Assembly: GCA_038817485.1 (NCBI GenBank)
Contig: JAWAZL010000002.1
Coordinates: 70,346-134,345, forward strand
Direction: 5' to 3'
Length of the DNA stretch: 64,000 nucleotides
Origin: Nitrososphaerota archaeon
GTDB taxonomy: Archaea > Thermoproteota > Nitrososphaeria_A > Caldarchaeales > JAVZCJ01
In this document: one piece after another, positions 2,420 to 36,312 of the stretch
How positions within the stretch are numbered: position 1 is the first letter of the stretch
How the letters are laid out: each line of letters begins with the position of its first letter
Position numbers and translations under genes: made by a program
The notes under the pieces: generated by a model
The model's input: the letters and a program-made list of their open reading frames with translations, nothing else
Databases searched by the model: none
What the model was told of the DNA's origin: nothing

Positions 2420-3853
2420 ATGAGTATCTCTTCTGAAAAAAAAGTTTTAAATTTTACAGAGTGGTTTGATAAAATATTAGAAGAAGCAAAGATAGTTGAT
2501 AATAGATACCCTGTAAAAGGTTTTTTAGTATATAGAGAGTATGGTTATAAAATTATTGAGAATATAAGATTATTGCTTGAAAGGAAGCTTGAAGAAACTA
2601 ATCATAAGGCTATGCTCTTTCCAATAGTTATTTCAGAAGATTCCTTCTCTAAAGAAGCTGAACATATTGCTCATTTTAAAGAAGAAGTTTTTTGGATTGA
2701 AAAAGCAGGCAATAAAAAGCTTGATAGAATGCTTATCTTAAGACCAACATCTGAAACTGCAATATATCCAATGCTTCAATTATGGATACGTTCTCATGTA
2801 GATCTTCCATTTAAAATGCATCAAAGTGTAACGGTATATCGTTATGAAACAAAAGCTACTAGGTCTCTTTTTAGAGTAAGAGAAATACTATGGAATGAAG
2901 CACATACTGCACATGCAACACCAGAGGATGCTGAAAAACAAGTAGAAGAAGCTATAAAAATATATTCAGAAGTTTTTAATGAATTAGGAATAGCTTATCT
3001 CCTTTTAAAAAGACCAGAATTTGATAAATTTGCAGGAGCTGTTTACTCTATAGCATTTGATGCTTGGAATCCGGATGGAAAAGTTAATCAAGTAGGTACA
3101 GTTCATAATCTTGGAACAAATTTTTCGAAAGTATTCGATGTAAAATATGAGAAAAAAGATGGTACTTGGGATTATGTTTATACAACTTGTTATGGCTTTG
3201 GTTTCTCTAGAACTCTTGCAGCAGTGATTGCACAACATGGAGATGATCATGGATGTGTTTTTCCATCGAAAATTGCTCCAATTCAATTAGTAATAATTCC
3301 AATTCCATATAAAGGATTTGAAAATGATATTGAGAATTATTGTATAGAAATATTTAATAAATTAAAAGATGATTATAGAGTAACAATTGATAATAGAAAA
3401 GATGTTAGACCTGGTGAAAAATTTTATTATTGGGAACTTTTAGGCGTTCCCATTAGAATTGAAATAGGCCCCTCAGAAGTTAAAGAAAAAACTGTAACTC
3501 TTGTTAGGAGAGATAATTTAAATAGGAAAAATGTATCGATAGAAAATTTACAATATGAAATAAACTCTTTACTTAATGATTTAGATAACAATCTAAGGTC
3601 AAAAAGTAAAAAAATCCTTGAAAATTTAATAGAAAATTGTTTTAATGTAAAAGATGTAAAAAAAGCTCTTTCTCAAAAGAAAATAGCTAGAGTTGAATGG
3701 TGTGGTAGTGGAAAATGTGCTGAAATTTTAAAAAATGAAGCAGGTGGTGAAATTCGAGGAACGAGAGTAGACATAATAGAAAAAGCTAACGGAAGATGCT
3801 TAGTTTGTGGTAAAGAATCAAAAGAAATCGTTTATGTTGCAAGAGCATATTGA
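2420..3853 (+). CDS. proS: Prolyl-tRNA synthetase, archaeal/eukaryal type
   Basis: 477 aa with class IIa motifs (LRPTSET, YRYE, FRVREILWNEAHT) and a C-terminal zinc-binding tail ending ARAY. Confidence 0.9.
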   Translation: MSISSEKKVLNFTEWFDKILEEAKIVDNRYPVKGFLVYREYGYKIIENIRLLLERKLEETNHKAMLFPIVISEDSFSKEAEHIAHFKEEVFWIEKAGNKKLDRMLILRPTSETAIYPMLQLWIRSHVDLPFKMHQSVTVYRYETKATRSLFRVREILWNEAHTAHATPEDAEKQVEEAIKIYSEVFNELGIAYLLLKRPEFDKFAGAVYSIAFDAWNPDGKVNQVGTVHNLGTNFSKVFDVKYEKKDGTWDYVYTTCYGFGFSRTLAAVIAQHGDDHGCVFPSKIAPIQLVIIPIPYKGFENDIENYCIEIFNKLKDDYRVTIDNRKDVRPGEKFYYWELLGVPIRIEIGPSEVKEKTVTLVRRDNLNRKNVSIENLQYEINSLLNDLDNNLRSKSKKILENLIENCFNVKDVKKALSQKKIARVEWCGSGKCAEILKNEAGGEIRGTRVDIIEKANGRCLVCGKESKEIVYVARAY

Positions 3854-3869
3854 ATAATAAAAATTAAAT

Positions 3870-4112
3870 TTAAAATTCAACATATTTACAATGAACTATT
3901 CCCTTAATTCTTCTTACGAAATATTTACATAAATAGCATTCAATAAAGCTTTTTTGCTTATTATCTTTTATACATATAATCGCTTCTTTACGCATGTTAT
4001 TTATCATTTTTTTACTAAGACCGATTTTTGCTTCCTCAATTAAATCTTTTGAAATTTTTAATGGTTTTTCAAGTTTTATTACTTTTACTTCTTTTACTCC
4101 ATCAAAATTCAT
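3870..4112 (-). CDS. Hypothetical small protein
   Basis: 80 aa ORF with no recognisable motif. The Cys cluster near the C-terminus is weak evidence only. Confidence 0.3.
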   Translation of the reverse strand: MNFDGVKEVKVIKLEKPLKISKDLIEEAKIGLSKKMINNMRKEAIICIKDNKQKSFIECYLCKYFVRRIKGIVHCKYVEF

Positions 4113-4178
4113 TATCTATAAAACAGTAAAAAATACTATATATTATTTTCCATGCGTAATAAAATTTATTTATAGATT

Positions 4179-5441
4179 TTAAAAATCTTCCAATGTTTTT
4201 TGTTCGCTCTTTATTTTATATTCTTCATTTTCTTTTTCATAAAAAATTGGCTGACCATAACATCCATCGTACCCTGGAATATATTTAATTTTTCTCTCTC
4301 TAACTTTAATTATCGCATTAGCAATTTTTTCATCTGTAACTTTCAATAACTCTTCCTTCGGTACATTAAGTAAAATATTCAACTCATTTCCAAATTTTCC
4401 TATTAATTTATCATGTTCTTGCATAACTTTTCTTGAATAAAGTTCTCCAGTTCCCCATGAAAAAGAAATTATTTCATATAATGGTAATAGAGTTTTAAAT
4501 GGTATAGCGGTTTCTGGAATAAAACCCTCCGGCCTATCAGCTAATTCTTCAACTCTATGCAATACGCCTATTGTTAATTTCCTTCCACATTTTGGACATA
4601 TATTGCCATTTTTAATAGCTTCTTTGGGATGTAACCTTACTCCACAATTGCGATGCCCATCATAATGATATTTTCCATAATTTGGGTCAACTTCTATCGT
4701 ATATAAGAATTTTTCTTTATCTTTATTTTTAATTACTTCAAAAATTTCCCAATATGTTATCTTTTTTAAATCAAACACATTTGCTTCTCTTCCTAAGCGC
4801 CATGGATGGGGAGAGTGGCTATCGCTATTTGAAATAAGAGTAAATTTATCAAGTGAGGATACTCTCCAATTCATATCTGGTGAACTACTAAGCCCGGTTT
4901 CTAAAGCAAAAACATGTTTTATTTGATCTTGATAACATTCTTCTACAGAATTAAAGCCTGATTTACTTCCCAAGCAAGACATCCAAGGCGTCCATGCATG
5001 TGCAGGATAAATTAAAATATCATCGCTTATATTAATAAGAATTTCTACAAGCTCTGGTGCACTTAGATTAAGTATGGGTCTTCCATCAACTTCTAAATCT
5101 CCATATTTTGATAATTCATCATTTATTTGTTCAACAATATCAAAAGATGGTGCATGGATAACGTGATGTACTCTTTTAATTTTATTTTCAAATTTAAAAT
5201 AAGTTGCTACTTCTGTAGTTAAAGTAAATAAAACATTATTATACTTAAATAGTCCTGTGCCTTCAATAGGTTCTAATTTTTTCTTTAATTCATTTAACCA
5301 TTTACTATAAGTAAAATCTGAAGTACCTACAAGATTTAATCCTTTTATTTTTACTCCTTGCGTTATCCCCTCTAAATTCATTTGTTTACTTGTAGCACGA
5401 CTATAAAAGGAATGTAAATGAAAATCGCAAATTAATTTCAT
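4179..5441 (-). CDS. PHP-domain nuclease resembling endonuclease Q
   Basis: N-terminal DFHLHSFYS PHP metal motif, about 420 aa, and an internal CPKCGRKLTIGVLHRVEELAD zinc-finger segment as in EndoQ. Assigned from memory of the family, not from a search. Confidence 0.6.
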   Translation of the reverse strand: MKLICDFHLHSFYSRATSKQMNLEGITQGVKIKGLNLVGTSDFTYSKWLNELKKKLEPIEGTGLFKYNNVLFTLTTEVATYFKFENKIKRVHHVIHAPSFDIVEQINDELSKYGDLEVDGRPILNLSAPELVEILINISDDILIYPAHAWTPWMSCLGSKSGFNSVEECYQDQIKHVFALETGLSSSPDMNWRVSSLDKFTLISNSDSHSPHPWRLGREANVFDLKKITYWEIFEVIKNKDKEKFLYTIEVDPNYGKYHYDGHRNCGVRLHPKEAIKNGNICPKCGRKLTIGVLHRVEELADRPEGFIPETAIPFKTLLPLYEIISFSWGTGELYSRKVMQEHDKLIGKFGNELNILLNVPKEELLKVTDEKIANAIIKVRERKIKYIPGYDGCYGQPIFYEKENEEYKIKSEQKTLEDF

Positions 5442-5552
5442 TTTTTTCTCCTATATATACCAATATCTTCTAAATATACTTTTATTTATAATGTTATTTT
5501 TAATTCGAAAGTTATTAAAGTAAAGAACTGAAATATTTAAGAAGAGTTAACA

Positions 5553-7355
5553 TCATTCCTCTTTTATGGTATATTCCTCCGGCGTAACATAATAATATTC
5601 TCCTATGGATTTTTGATATTTATCTATTTGAGAATTAAGTTTATTAGCTCTTGGTCTTAAGGTTGAAGGATCTCTACGAAAAGTTACTCCTATTTCTTTT
5701 AAAAAATTATTCATACCATCTCTTAATGATGTTGGGGGATTTGCTATTCCATATACTCCAGGCTCTCCAGAAAATACTATTAATCTTGTTGATACAAAAT
5801 CTATAACCATCAAATCATGATCTACAACAAAGCTATAAGAATTTCTTATACTTGTAATCCTTTTTATAAGCTTTGTTACTGCATACCTTTCTTCTACATC
5901 AAGATATGCGCTAGGTTCATCAAGCAAATATACATCAGCTTTTCTCGAAAGACAAATTGCTATGGAAACTTTTTGAAGCTCTCCTCCACTAAGCTCATTA
6001 ATTTTTTTATCCATTAGCTTTTCTAAATTAAGTTTATCTATTATTTCTGATTGTACTAGAGGAGAATTATATTCTTCTTTTGCAGCTTCTTTTATTGCAT
6101 CACTAACAATAGAATCTATTGCTATTGGATATTGTGGTTTATAACTTATATTTTTTATTGGTAAAGAAATATTTTCATCAGTTTTCTCAATTCCAGCTAA
6201 AATTTTTATTAAAGTTGTTTTTCCAATACCATTTGGCCCTATTAGACCTATTACTTCTCCTCTATAAACTTCTCCGCTTTTAATATTAAGTGAAAAACCT
6301 GGATAAGTTTTCTTCATTTCAGGCCATGCTAATTTCTCCTCTCCTTTAGAGATTGGGAGTGTCGGGGGTTTTATATCAAATGTTATTTTCTCTTTTCTAA
6401 AACGTAGATTCTCGGTTGGTATGTACCCCTCTATAAATATATTTATTCCCTCCCTCACTCCATATGGTCCAGATACAACACCATAAACAGAACCCTCTCC
6501 GTAAAATATAAATACTATATCTGACAAATAGTCCATTACTGCTAAATCATGATCACATACTAATGTTTTCTTATCTAAAGTAAATTCTCTAATAACTTTA
6601 GCAGCATTAAAACGTTGTTTAATATCTAGAAAACTTGAAGGTTCATCTAAAAAGTAAATATTAGCATCTTTAAGTAAACAAGCAGCTATCGCAACTCTTT
6701 GTAACTCTCCTCCGCTTAACATAGAAATTTCTCTATCTAAAATATTTTTTAATTCAAGAGCGTTTATTATAAAACTCATTTTTTCTTCATTATTACTTAT
6801 CTTTTTTAAAATCTCAAAAACTTTTCCTTTTATAATTCGAGGTATATTGCTTATGTATTGCGGTTTATAGGAAACTTTTAATGAATTATTAAACAATTCA
6901 TTAAAATGTTGTTGTATAAGAGTACCTCTAAAAAAATTTGTAATATCTTTTAACTCAATTTTTTTATTGAATTCTCCAAAATTTGGAATGAGTTGTCCAG
7001 CAAGAATATTTATTGCCGTAGATTTTCCAAGAGCATTTTTACCTATACATCCAATTACTTTCCCTTTAACTAAATAAGGAAGTCTATATAACCTAAATGC
7101 ATTTATTCCGTATTGATGTACAAGATCTTTAGTTAATTTATCTGGTAAATTAACAATAGTAATAGCTTTAAACGGACATTTTTTTACGCAAAGTCCACAT
7201 CCAACGCAAAATATTTCTATTATATTTGGATAGGTATTTTCATCAATTTTTATAGTTTCAATTCCAGTTCTATTTTTTGGACAAAATTTTTTACAAGTAT
7301 ATCCACACTTTTTTGGTTGGCATAAATCTTTATCGATAACTGCTATTCGTGGCAA
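5553..7355 (-). CDS. ABCE1: ABCE1 / RNase L inhibitor-type ribosome recycling ATPase
   Basis: N-terminal double 4Fe-4S cluster (CxxCxxC...CP twice), then two ABC cassettes with Walker A (GKNALGKST, GPNGIGKTT) and LSGGELQ signatures. Confidence 0.92.
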   Translation of the reverse strand: MPRIAVIDKDLCQPKKCGYTCKKFCPKNRTGIETIKIDENTYPNIIEIFCVGCGLCVKKCPFKAITIVNLPDKLTKDLVHQYGINAFRLYRLPYLVKGKVIGCIGKNALGKSTAINILAGQLIPNFGEFNKKIELKDITNFFRGTLIQQHFNELFNNSLKVSYKPQYISNIPRIIKGKVFEILKKISNNEEKMSFIINALELKNILDREISMLSGGELQRVAIAACLLKDANIYFLDEPSSFLDIKQRFNAAKVIREFTLDKKTLVCDHDLAVMDYLSDIVFIFYGEGSVYGVVSGPYGVREGINIFIEGYIPTENLRFRKEKITFDIKPPTLPISKGEEKLAWPEMKKTYPGFSLNIKSGEVYRGEVIGLIGPNGIGKTTLIKILAGIEKTDENISLPIKNISYKPQYPIAIDSIVSDAIKEAAKEEYNSPLVQSEIIDKLNLEKLMDKKINELSGGELQKVSIAICLSRKADVYLLDEPSAYLDVEERYAVTKLIKRITSIRNSYSFVVDHDLMVIDFVSTRLIVFSGEPGVYGIANPPTSLRDGMNNFLKEIGVTFRRDPSTLRPRANKLNSQIDKYQKSIGEYYYVTPEEYTIKEE

Positions 7356-29449: not shown

Positions 29450-29689
29450 ATTTAATCACTTAAACTACCAAAAAATAAAGTAAAACTTATTTATATTTTT
29501 ATAATTTATGAAAAGATTAGGAATTATTTTTTAAATTTTTTAAGTTTTTATAAAAATAGGAAAATTTACTTTAAATACAATGATAAATATTAAATTTATG
29601 AATTATTTTTTAATATTTTATTCATAATTCACCCGTAAAATCCTTTAATAGTTTTAATATTGCTTATTTTCATTTTTAAAAGAAAAAAG

Positions 29690-29716
29690 TTTATAAATAA
29701 GATTATAAATATAAAC
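29690..29716 (+). promoter_or_regulatory. Candidate rRNA operon promoter (TATA box TTTATAAATA, second ATTATAAATA)
   Basis: TATA-like elements lie 20-30 nt upstream of the abrupt switch from AT-rich to GC-rich sequence at about 29719. TATA-like strings are common in this genome, so the evidence is positional only. Confidence 0.45.
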
Positions 29717-29842
29717 TATGCTTAGCTACAGTCGACGGCGGTTCGTCTCGATAGGGGAGTTTAGCTCCCCAAAATGAAAAGACGTCCTCCTACTGTAGCT
29801 AAATAATGAGGATTTGAGCGAATAGGATGCTCAAATCTGATG

Positions 29843-29881
29843 TGGGTAAGCTTCTGATTCTCATAAAAAAGCTTCAGCTTT
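29843..29881 (+). promoter_or_regulatory. 16S processing stem, 5' arm
   Basis: A perfect 39 nt reverse complement of 31391-31429 brackets the 16S rRNA. Confidence 0.85.
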
Positions 29882-29895
29882 GCGGCCAATAAAGG

Positions 29896-31383
<1,488 letters not shown>

Positions 31384-31390
31384 ATCGGAA

Positions 31391-31429
31391 AAAGCTGAAG
31401 CTTTTTTATGAGAATCAGAAGCTTACCCA
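31391..31429 (+). promoter_or_regulatory. 16S processing stem, 3' arm
   Basis: Perfect complement of 29843-29881. It is followed by a T6 run and a perfect 24 nt palindrome (31441-31464) in the spacer. No tRNA is present in the spacer. Confidence 0.85.
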
Positions 31430-31496
31430 TTTTTTATGAAAGCTTAGATGTTAACATCTAAGCTGGATGCAGGAGTAAGGTACATCCTTACAGTGA

Positions 31497-31541
31497 CTGC
31501 TTGCATAACTGGAAACCACTAACTAGAATTGTGTTTAGTGA
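31497..31541 (+). promoter_or_regulatory. 23S processing stem, 5' arm
   Basis: Pairs with 34584-34628 as 20 bp, a 6x6 internal loop, then 19 bp. Confidence 0.8.
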
Positions 31542-31544
31542 GGG

Positions 31545-34580
<3,036 letters not shown>

Positions 34581-34583
34581 GAG

Positions 34584-34628
34584 TCACTAAACACAATTCT
34601 AGGTGAAAGTTTCCAGTTATGCAAGCAG
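34584..34628 (+). promoter_or_regulatory. 23S processing stem, 3' arm
   Basis: Complement of 31497-31541 (see the 5' arm entry). Confidence 0.8.
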
Positions 34629-34631
34629 CAC

Positions 34632-34939
34632 ATGAAGACGAGTAGGCAGGTGGGTTACGAGATTTTCTTGGGGAAGGTCCTCCCCTCATGGAAGAACATG
34701 ACACCGTGAGGTGTAAGGGGAAACCCTTGGCAACGCCACAGAAACGAGACCCCTCTATTCTAATGAGAATGATACTGCACTAAAAAAGCAGTTGAAGAAG
34801 AATAGAGAATGGTTGAAACGGGCGTCCCATGTGAGGAAAGGCTAAATTAAGCCAATGATTGCTTCCATGAGGCTTGAGTTAGCCGATTAGAAAAATCCCA
34901 CCTAAAACAGAAGGAGGACTATTGCCTACTCGTCTTCAT
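34632..34939 (+). ncRNA. rnpB: RNase P RNA (archaeal type A-like)
   Basis: P1 is 17 bp (34632-34648 with 34923-34939) and P2 is GGTGGG/CCCACC (34649-34654 with 34897-34902). CR-I-like GGAAGGTCCTCC (34672-34683) can pair with the 3' ACAGAAGGAGGAC (34907-34919) to form the P4 pseudoknot. Also present: an 11 bp helix 34684-34694/34862-34872, GGGGAAACCC, and GCCACAGAAAC (ACAGAAA at 34738-34744). Confidence 0.8.
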
Positions 34940-34948
34940 TTTTTATTT
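34939..34948 (+). terminator. Oligo-T tract after RNase P RNA
   Basis: TTTTTTATTT directly follows the P1 3' strand. Confidence 0.4.
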
Positions 34949-34995
34949 AAAAAGTTTAAAGTTTTTAGTATAGTGTTAATTCTATTTAATTAAAA

Positions 34996-36312
34996 ATGAT
35001 ACTTCATATAGGCTTAGATGATACTGATTCAAAAAATGGAATGTGTACAACTTACATAGGAGCAATAATATTTTATGAATTATTAAAAATAGGAGCTATT
35101 CCAATAGATTTTCCTAGATTAATAAGACTTAATCCAAATTGGGTTTGGAAAACTAGAGGAAATGCAGCTATAGCATTAAGTTTTAAAATTGAAGATTGGA
35201 TTTTTGATAAAGTAAAAAGAAAAACTATAGAAATAGTAGAAAAAATGGCTGAGAAAGAAAATGAAGATACACACCCAGGTATAGTTTTTTATAAAGGAGA
35301 GAAAATACCTGATGAATTAAAAAATTTTTCAAAAAAAGTTATTAAATATATTGTAACATTGGAAGAAGCTGAAGAAATTGCTAAAAAAATAGGGGCAGAA
35401 ATTTATAAAATTAAACTTGGTAGAGGAATAATTGGAGCATTAGCAGCAATAGGAGAAGAACTTAAAGAAGATTATACTTATGAATTAATTGCTTATAGAA
35501 AACCTGAAAATTGGGGTACAAAAAGAAGAATAGATAAAGAATCTGTTATAGAAATGGATAAAAAAACTTATCCATATACTTTTGATAATATAGATTATTC
35601 TACAAATGATATAAGAATTACTCCACATACTCCATGTCCAGTATTATATGGAATTAGGTCTAATATTATAGAAGCAGCTTTTGAAGCAAAAAATATATTA
35701 AAAATAAATGAAGAAATAGAAAGAATTTTATTATTTAAAACAAATCAAGCAACAGATGCTCATATAAATAAAGTAGAAATTAATGATGTTAAGCCATTTT
35801 TGTCGGTATCTCTAAAAGGAAAAATTATATCTAATCCATTTATTATTCAAGGTGGACATGTATTTTTCTGGGTGGGAAATGGAAATAATAAAATTAGATG
35901 TGCAGCATATGAGCCTACAAAAAAATTTAGAAATGTAATATTATCACTTAGAGAAGGAGATGTTGTTGAAGTATATGGAGGAATAAAACCTAGAGAAAAT
36001 GAGCCATTAACAATCAATTTAGAAAAAATTAAAGTAATAGAGATTTCTAAAGAAGAAAAAATTAATCCATTATGTCCAAAATGTAATAAAAGAATGAAAT
36101 CAGCTGGAAAAAATAAAGGGTTTATATGTAAAAAATGTGGTTTTAAAAGTATTGATATGAAACCATTAATTGTACCTATTAAAAGATATATAAAAACAGG
36201 ATTTTATGAAGTACCACCAAGAGCAAGAAGGCATTTGTCTAAACCAATTTGTAGAATGCTTTTTAGGAAAGAAATAGATTTAAATGAAATAGGAGAATTG
36301 ATAAAAATTTAA
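34996..36312 (+). CDS. tiaS: tRNA(Ile2) 2-agmatinylcytidine synthetase
   Basis: N-terminus MILHIGLDDTDSKNGMCTTY and C-terminal zinc ribbon CPKCNKRMKSAGKNKGFICKKCG are typical of TiaS. Confidence 0.85.
   Translation: MILHIGLDDTDSKNGMCTTYIGAIIFYELLKIGAIPIDFPRLIRLNPNWVWKTRGNAAIALSFKIEDWIFDKVKRKTIEIVEKMAEKENEDTHPGIVFYKGEKIPDELKNFSKKVIKYIVTLEEAEEIAKKIGAEIYKIKLGRGIIGALAAIGEELKEDYTYELIAYRKPENWGTKRRIDKESVIEMDKKTYPYTFDNIDYSTNDIRITPHTPCPVLYGIRSNIIEAAFEAKNILKINEEIERILLFKTNQATDAHINKVEINDVKPFLSVSLKGKIISNPFIIQGGHVFFWVGNGNNKIRCAAYEPTKKFRNVILSLREGDVVEVYGGIKPRENEPLTINLEKIKVIEISKEEKINPLCPKCNKRMKSAGKNKGFICKKCGFKSIDMKPLIVPIKRYIKTGFYEVPPRARRHLSKPICRMLFRKEIDLNEIGELIKI

Follow-up and report, generated by a model that had tools for sequence, protein, structure and literature searches.

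Transcription and end formation of archaeal RNase P RNA are poorly known. In the archaeal DNA presented above (hereafter the window, i.e., the whole stretch of 64,000 nucleotides that was analyzed), a candidate gene for this RNA (rnpB) lies immediately behind the 23S rRNA gene. This raises the question of whether rnpB is merely a neighbor of the rRNA genes or the last member of their operon, and, in the latter case, how the RNase P RNA would be released from the rRNA precursor.

A scan of the whole window with Rfam models placed a match to the archaeal RNase P RNA family RF00373 (RNaseP_arch) on the + strand at 34638-34933, with a score of 214.5 bits (E 1.3e-62), well over the gathering score of 84, and with the full model covered (model positions 1-288). 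The preliminary description of this locus had pointed to RNase P RNA hallmarks (P2, a CR-I/P4 pairing and other motifs) and had proposed a check with the Rfam archaeal RNase P models; the check returned this full-length match, and the hallmarks were found in place. Its 17-bp P1 helix, starting at 34632 and enclosing about 308 nt, was also recovered. We found P1 to consist of 16-17 bp, formed by ATGAAGACGAGTAGGC(A) at 34632-34647(48) with (T)GCCTACTCGTCTTCAT at 34923(24)-34939, to enclose 308 nt and to be 6-8 bp longer than in the Rfam model. CR-I reads GGAAGGTCCTCC (34672-34683; the element is listed from 34670) and the CR-V/P4 3' strand reads ACAGAAGGAGGAC (34907-34919), so that the P4 pseudoknot comprises 7 bp between GUCCUCC (34677-34683) and GGAGGAC (34913-34919). 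The middle pair of P4 covaries among the lineages described below, being U:A in the window, A:U in loci L012 and L044, and G:C in L026. In the model alignment, all helices of a type A RNA (P1-P3, P8, P9, P10/11-P12 and P15-16) were aligned with high posterior probability, and the set of P8, P9, P10/11-P12 and P15-16 separates this RNA from types M and T and makes it type A. Positions 34632-34939 are a full archaeal RNase P RNA gene, lying on the same strand as the 23S rRNA and immediately 3' to its processing stem (Table 1). With regard to CR-I, three of the four lineages with 23S-linked rnpB have GGAAGGUCC (34672-34680 in the window; also L012/L040 and L026) and not the archaeal consensus GGAAAGUCC; CR-I of L044/L050 retains the consensus A.

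Table 1. Features of the rRNA-rnpB locus in the window, and loci of the lineages in which rnpB follows the 23S rRNA gene.
Feature or lineage	Position or loci	Strand	Basis or remark
Candidate BRE/TATA promoter of rRNA operon	29682-29699	+	gaaaaaag TTTATAAATA; 8/8 TATA-like octamer; putative
5' leader	29720-29895	+	sequence and cofold
16S rRNA	29896-31383	+	RF01959, 1541 bits
Internal 16S-23S spacer	31384-31531	+	cofolds
23S rRNA	31532-34593	+	RF02540, 2917 bits
23S-rnpB spacer (3' strand of 23S processing stem)	34594-34631 (38 nt)	+	cofold, -73.4 kcal/mol
rnpB (archaeal type A RNase P RNA)	34632-34939, including extended P1	+	RF00373, P1 extension
Oligo-T tracts, presumed termination signals	T6 34939-34944, T5 34962-34966	+	T-run listing; putative function
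tiaS (tRNA-Ile2 agmatidine synthetase)	34996-36312	+	starts 56 nt past P1
Window lineage	L023, L041, L043, L039	same strand	stem strand makes up the spacer, with P1 abutting or overlapping it
Ca. Methanodesulfokora washburnensis and near-identical contigs (Korarchaeia)	L012, L047, L035, L040, L031, L032, L037	same strand	clean 3-4-3 bulge-helix-bulge
Ca. Pacearchaeota genome (DPANN)	L026	same strand	16S-(tRNA)-23S-rnpB, 29-nt spacer
AT-rich lineage	L044, L050	same strand	16S-tRNA-23S-rnpB

Upstream of the 16S rRNA gene, a TATA-like octamer comparable to those located 5' of the tRNA genes of the same genome was observed, and transcription of the rRNA operon is predicted to start near 29720. Within the leader, a 12-bp closing helix (29722-29733/29793-29804) is followed by a hairpin (29810-29838) and then by the 16S stem's 5' arm (29842-29881). 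An Rfam E-value scan of the leader found no known RNA family, its sole match being a meaningless miRNA; the hairpin is flanked by AAUGAGGA and CUGAUG and resembles a C/D-box or k-turn element. The internal spacer carries the 3' arm of the 16S stem (31391-31430) and two hairpins; it also contains the 23S stem's 5' arm (31493-31531, continuing into 23S rRNA to 31540). Neither Rfam nor ARAGORN called a tRNA in this spacer, and the Rfam scan found no 5S rRNA in the whole 64-kb window. In the cofold, the 16S processing stem (29842-29881/31391-31430) is a perfect 40-bp helix that lacks a bulge-helix-bulge, and it stays perfect in the related locus L041 through three double compensatory changes. The lack of this motif suggests that processing of the operon based on the tRNA-splicing endonuclease, EndA, is non-uniform. 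The 23S rRNA has, in its 3' domain, a 40-nt palindromic hairpin insertion (34449-34488) relative to the Rfam archaeal consensus, which is common to close relatives.

The 3' strand of the processing stem of 23S rRNA takes up the whole spacer between 23S rRNA and rnpB. The cofold of the 23S flanks yielded an inner helix of 18 bp (31523-31540/34585-34602), a 6x6 internal loop, and an outer helix of 20 bp (31497-31516/34609-34628) followed, after a bulged A, by 3 additional bp (31493-31495/34629-34631). The 3' arm ends at 34628, as had been described, or at 34631 when the last 3 bp are included, and no unpaired nucleotide is left between the stem strand and P1, which begins at the very next base. 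As read by eye from the cofold, the 6x6 loop is compatible with a canonical 3-4-3 bulge-helix-bulge. CACU (31517-31520) and GGUG (34602-34605) form its central helix, in which one of the pairs is G.U; the 5' bulge is at 31521-31523 and the 3' bulge is AAA at 34606-34608; the flanking helices have 17-18 bp and 20+3 bp. We also folded the spliced chimera, in which 23S rRNA is excised and the spacers are joined. In this fold, all bases of 34609-34631 pair with 31493-31516 and all bases of 34632-34647 pair with 34924-34939, giving a 23-bp hairpin that is flush with P1.

Signals for independent expression of rnpB were sought around this junction. Octamer scoring found no TATA/BRE between 23S rRNA and P1. 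The best TATA-like octamer 5' of P1 scores 4/8 and the region from -40 to -18 relative to P1 is 64% AT, versus 6-8/8 and 82-95% AT in the same region when the four tRNA genes of this genome and its rRNA leader are scored. In addition, no run of five or more T is present on the operon strand between 33407 and 34939, and the first such run after 33407 is the T6 that begins at the final base of P1. These results agree with two earlier statements, namely that an AT-rich, promoter-like spacer is missing between 23S rRNA and P1 and that an oligo-T tract directly follows P1. They bear on the possibility that rnpB is merely adjacent to the rRNA genes and is served by a weak or atypical promoter of its own, hidden in the 3' end of 23S rRNA or in the stem strand, with the rRNA ending or being processed before P1. 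There is a precedent for independent expression in Haloferax volcanii, where transcription of the RNase P RNA begins at a mapped start of its own (PMC4983044), and a faint BRE/TATA look-alike, GAAAGTTTCC at 34606-34615, lies approximately 20-26 nt before P1 in the window. The low TATA-like score and low AT content at P1, together with the lack of a terminator-like T-run parting 23S rRNA from P1, argue against such a promoter, and the comparison of lineages (below) is also relevant to it.

The 3' end of the unit is less sharply defined. Two T6 runs are located within the 16S-23S spacer, at 31402 and 31430, and must be read through for 23S rRNA to be made. Therefore, an oligo-T tract is no guaranteed stop, and the end of the operon at the tracts behind P1 is a presumed one. 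If these tracts were read through as well, transcription would continue into tiaS, which is on the same strand, and the resulting 16S-23S-rnpB-tiaS unit would join two tRNA-maturation functions to rRNA. The order of rnpB and tiaS is kept in relatives whose TiaS protein is 93% identical. However, the interval between P1 and the tiaS ATG contains both the T6 and the T5 runs and an AT-rich BRE/TATA-like sequence, AAAAAGTTTAAAGTTTTTAG; the rnpB-tiaS spacer is unconserved (135 nt in L041 versus 56 nt in the window); and rnpB is not followed by tiaS in the other lineages. This longer operon is thus very unlikely. It was also observed that two tRNA-maturation functions, rnpB and TiaS, are neighbors, in an order kept among the species-level relatives.

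We then compared the locus with other sequences. Five independent NCBI assemblies and a Logan contig present in five samples carry the identical sequence, and JGI metagenome contigs contain near-identical versions. Identity across independent assemblies argues strongly against an assembly artefact. Species-level relatives (L023, L041, L043 and L039), with 23S rRNA approximately 98% identical, retain the gene order IlvC-tRNA-16S-23S-rnpB-TiaS. Beyond these relatives, synteny of the flanking genes is not conserved across phyla. The comparison of related genomes that had been proposed as a check showed the 23S-rnpB junction itself to be kept, both in the close relatives and in three further groups. 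L041 and the window share 97% identity in the RNase P RNA, where P2 shows a compensatory exchange of A-U to G-C. Their stem strands differ by a single change, C34629 to U, which is still paired as G.U. Conservation drops immediately after the 3' strand of P1 (34939), and this drop marks where the functional RNA ends. An extension of 8 bp (ACATGAAG/CTTCATGT) is present in P1 of L041 and L043 and overlaps the final two bases of the 23S stem, so that in these loci the two helices abut or compete.

These data also address the idea that this copy of rnpB is a non-functional relic or that its adjacency to 23S rRNA is an assembly chimera. The inspected part of the genome is 64 kb, and a second rnpB elsewhere in the genome is possible. 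Nevertheless, the copy in the window matches the model over its full length, with all type-A helices present and P4 intact, and shows compensatory substitutions and sharp conservation boundaries, and the occurrence of the same sequence in the five assemblies, the Logan contig and the JGI contigs speaks against a chimera. We regard either case as extremely improbable. A separate difference between assemblies was observed 3' of the ribosomal protein L16 gene, where TnpB-like ORFs with a Cas12f1-like_TNB domain vary in length (14769-15356 in L001, L003 and L004; 14769-15914 in L002; at about 39.8 kb in the window), which points to a strain-variable mobile element.

To find other 23S-linked rnpB genes, a genome collection was scanned for a pattern consisting of a motif of the 23S 3' end followed by CR-I at a set distance, and metagenomes were scanned with a wider version of this pattern. 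Because the 40-nt insertion follows the universal CTGAAAGCATCTAAG motif, the scan used GAAGA-N5-TTGATRG, close to the 23S 3' end, as its anchor. Every match was checked with Rfam for RNase P RNA beside 23S rRNA. Four lineages were identified (Table 1), a lower bound because the patterns used exact motifs and a limited range of gaps. For 19 bacterial loci from the genome scan, two archaeal loci (L008, Archaeoglobales, and L028, Thermoplasmatota) and nine metagenome loci, Rfam found no RNase P RNA beside 23S rRNA, and these were considered chance matches.

The four groups are deeply divergent: 23S rRNA is 66-73% identical between them and RNase P RNA is 44-55% identical. The sequence of P1 differs in each group, and P1 is always extended past the Rfam model or flush with it. 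In Korarchaeia, the junction is a 25-nt spacer made of the stem strand only, whose final 3 pairs overlap the extended P1 (GTGGAG...CTCCAC). In the Pacearchaeota genome, no obvious bulge-helix-bulge was found in the 23S stem, and a T6 run is located 2 nt past P1, followed by a separate tRNA. The best TATA-like scores 5' of P1 are 3/8 in Korarchaeia and 4/8 in Pacearchaeota, and AT content in this region, with the window included, is 41-64%, below the range of the promoters of the window's genome. In two phyla, the spacer of 25-38 nt is wholly given over to stem pairing. These features make a separate rnpB promoter at such junctions unlikely. The AT-rich lineage is different. Its 35-nt spacer (8024-8058 in L044) is AT-rich and mostly unpaired and has a 6/8 TATA-like box, TTTATT, at a suitable distance, approximately 27 nt 5' of P1. 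In L044/L050, rnpB may have its own promoter, and hence adjacency to 23S rRNA need not mean dependence on the rRNA promoter.

Several additional observations concern individual members of these lineages. On the reverse strand of L012, where the RNase P RNA is located at 3986-4262 and 23S rRNA at 4291-7336, the RNase P RNA has 33 extra nt that are flanked by a direct repeat, AATCCGCCCAA, and form a 14-bp hairpin, and the 23S rRNA has 41 extra nt at a conserved site (CUCUU|AAGGUAGCC). Both inserts are missing from the near-identical contigs L040, L031 and L032. The insert in the RNase P RNA was examined as a bulge-helix-bulge mini-intron, but it folds as a plain hairpin; mini-introns, mobile insertions and assembly artefacts are candidate explanations for the two inserts. 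Another member of the korarchaeal group, L037, has a 23S rRNA that spans 3552 nt (3746-7297) versus 3005 nt in L040, which suggests an intron or insertion of approximately 550 nt. In L026 (reverse strand), the 16S-23S spacer (5529-5747) contains a tRNA-like sequence, GGGCCCGTAGCTCAG..., which seems to bear an intron and was not called by Rfam at the gathering threshold.

On the basis of the observed identity and anatomy of the gene, the missing promoter and terminator signals and the cross-lineage conservation, we consider it likely that a predicted functional type-A rnpB is the last cistron of a 16S-23S-rnpB unit, with a promoter at approximately 29690 and an end at the oligo-T tract from 34939. 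Co-transcription with 16S and 23S rRNA, as had been proposed in the preliminary description, is well supported by sequence signals: the stem fills the spacer, neither a TATA/BRE nor a T-run precedes P1, a T-run follows it, and four highly divergent lineages share the junction. From these signals we infer that rnpB is transcribed from the rRNA promoter. It had further been suggested that the machinery acting on the stem would also release rnpB. This agrees with the locus in one respect, since a cut at the bulge-helix-bulge would part pre-23S rRNA from the downstream RNA. It falls short in another, as a cut in the 3' bulge (34606-34608) would leave approximately 23-25 nt of the stem strand 5' of P1, and a further trimming or cleavage step would be needed.

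A possible order of maturation can be outlined. RNA polymerase would run from 23S rRNA and the 3' strand of the stem straight into P1 and stop at the T-tracts. EndA would then cut both 3-nt bulges (at about 31520-31523 and at 34606-34608) and free pre-23S rRNA to circularize. The leftover 3' fragment would be composed of 23-25 nt of the stem strand and the RNase P RNA. In Pyrococcus, spacers are reciprocally ligated after bulge-helix-bulge cleavage, and a leader/trailer "RNA chimera" was seen (bioRxiv 10.1101/2019.12.18.880849). By analogy, the leftover fragment would probably be ligated to the upstream spacer, placing the 23-bp hairpin flush with P1. An endonuclease or a 5'-3' exonuclease might trim this intermediate as far as the base of the long P1; this helix would act as a roadblock setting both mature ends. 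With such an operon layout, synthesis of RNase P RNA would be tied to that of rRNA. Circular RNase P RNA has been reported in Thermococcales (bioRxiv 10.64898/2026.03.23.713588), and we speculate that the flush ends of P1 would suit circularization of the RNase P RNA.

A bolder reading combines two proposals: that a splicing-like reaction yields the RNase P RNA as its 3' "exon", and that the layout reflects an ancestral archaeal linkage rather than convergence. Under this joint reading, EndA would excise pre-16S rRNA as well as pre-23S rRNA, a ligase would join the spacers, and the RNase P RNA would mature from the chimera or circularize via P1. We regard it as tentative and, taken as a whole, doubtful. 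If it is true, biogenesis of the ribozyme that processes tRNA 5' ends would depend on the tRNA-splicing machinery and would be dosed by rRNA transcription, and the ancestral linkage would cover Korarchaeia, a Nitrososphaeria-labelled thermophile, DPANN and, with 5S rRNA, Methanococcales.

Apart from this bolder reading, the locus offers a testable model, in which EndA cuts at the 23S bulge-helix-bulge and trimming to the long P1 follows. Transcription of RNase P RNA in step with rRNA, which the layout implies, raises the question of how the level of this RNA would be set. The arrangement connects the machineries of tRNA processing and ribosome biogenesis in one more way. It also provides a rule for annotation of uncultured archaea: rnpB should be sought 3' of 23S rRNA.

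The preliminary description had named no earlier report of a 16S-23S-rnpB operon. The novelty so implied was overstated, since one of the three rRNA operons of M. maripaludis, rrnC, has been experimentally described as 16S-tRNAAla-23S-5S-rnpB, transcribed as one polycistronic precursor (PMC10515664). In this organism, EndA cuts bulge-helix-bulge stems flanking 16S and 23S rRNA, an endonuclease acting at an A/U-rich motif of 10 nt, located 3-6 nt past 5S rRNA, splits 5S rRNA from RNase P RNA, and the terminal stem of the RNase P RNA, which is of type M and has a 6-bp terminal stem, was proposed to serve as a ruler or roadblock (PMC10515664). Similar to rrnC, rnpB of the window is the distal gene of the rRNA cluster, on the same strand, with no intervening promoter or terminator signal, and a bulge-helix-bulge is found in the 23S stem; the 16S stem of the window lacks one. 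In contrast to rrnC, the window has neither 5S rRNA nor tRNA in the cluster, P1 has 16-17 bp, the linker to the 23S stem is 0 nt, and the bulge-helix-bulge provides the only obvious site for a separating cut. The A/U-rich 10-nt motif (M. maripaludis/M. psychrophilus) has one match in the spacer, at 34614, against a background of 15 matches per 100 nt in AT-rich DNA of this genome; this motif is too degenerate in a genome with approximately 26% GC outside its rRNA genes, and the match is uninformative. Because 5S rRNA is missing between 23S rRNA and rnpB, the window is a variant of the rrnC type and not the same architecture. Searchable full-text literature contained no description of a direct 23S-rnpB junction without 5S rRNA or of rRNA-rnpB linkage outside Methanococcales. 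What appears to be new is the direct fusion of rnpB to the 23S stem without 5S rRNA, together with the range of archaea in which it occurs. The linkage had been reported once, in Methanococcus; it is far broader and can be tighter.

Compared with stand-alone archaeal RNase P RNA genes (RF00373), such as that of Haloferax volcanii, the window rnpB has the same core (P4 formed by CR-I/CR-V, P8, P9, P10/11, P12 and P15-16) but lacks a detectable promoter of its own, has a longer P1 and carries GGAAGGUCC instead of GGAAAGUCC in CR-I. Other small stable RNAs travel with rRNA. In Methanothermus fervidus, 7S RNA is reportedly linked to an rRNA operon (Haas et al. 1990). In T. kodakarensis, a snoRNA is located in the rRNA leader (PMC4247193). 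Similar to these passengers, the RNase P RNA of the window would be a small stable RNA placed on a strong rRNA promoter and cut from the precursor. Unlike them, it is the catalytic RNA of RNase P, and it would lie in the 3' "exon" left after excision of 23S rRNA rather than in the leader or behind processing signals of its own, at the position where other archaeal rRNA operons have a distal 5S rRNA or tRNA.
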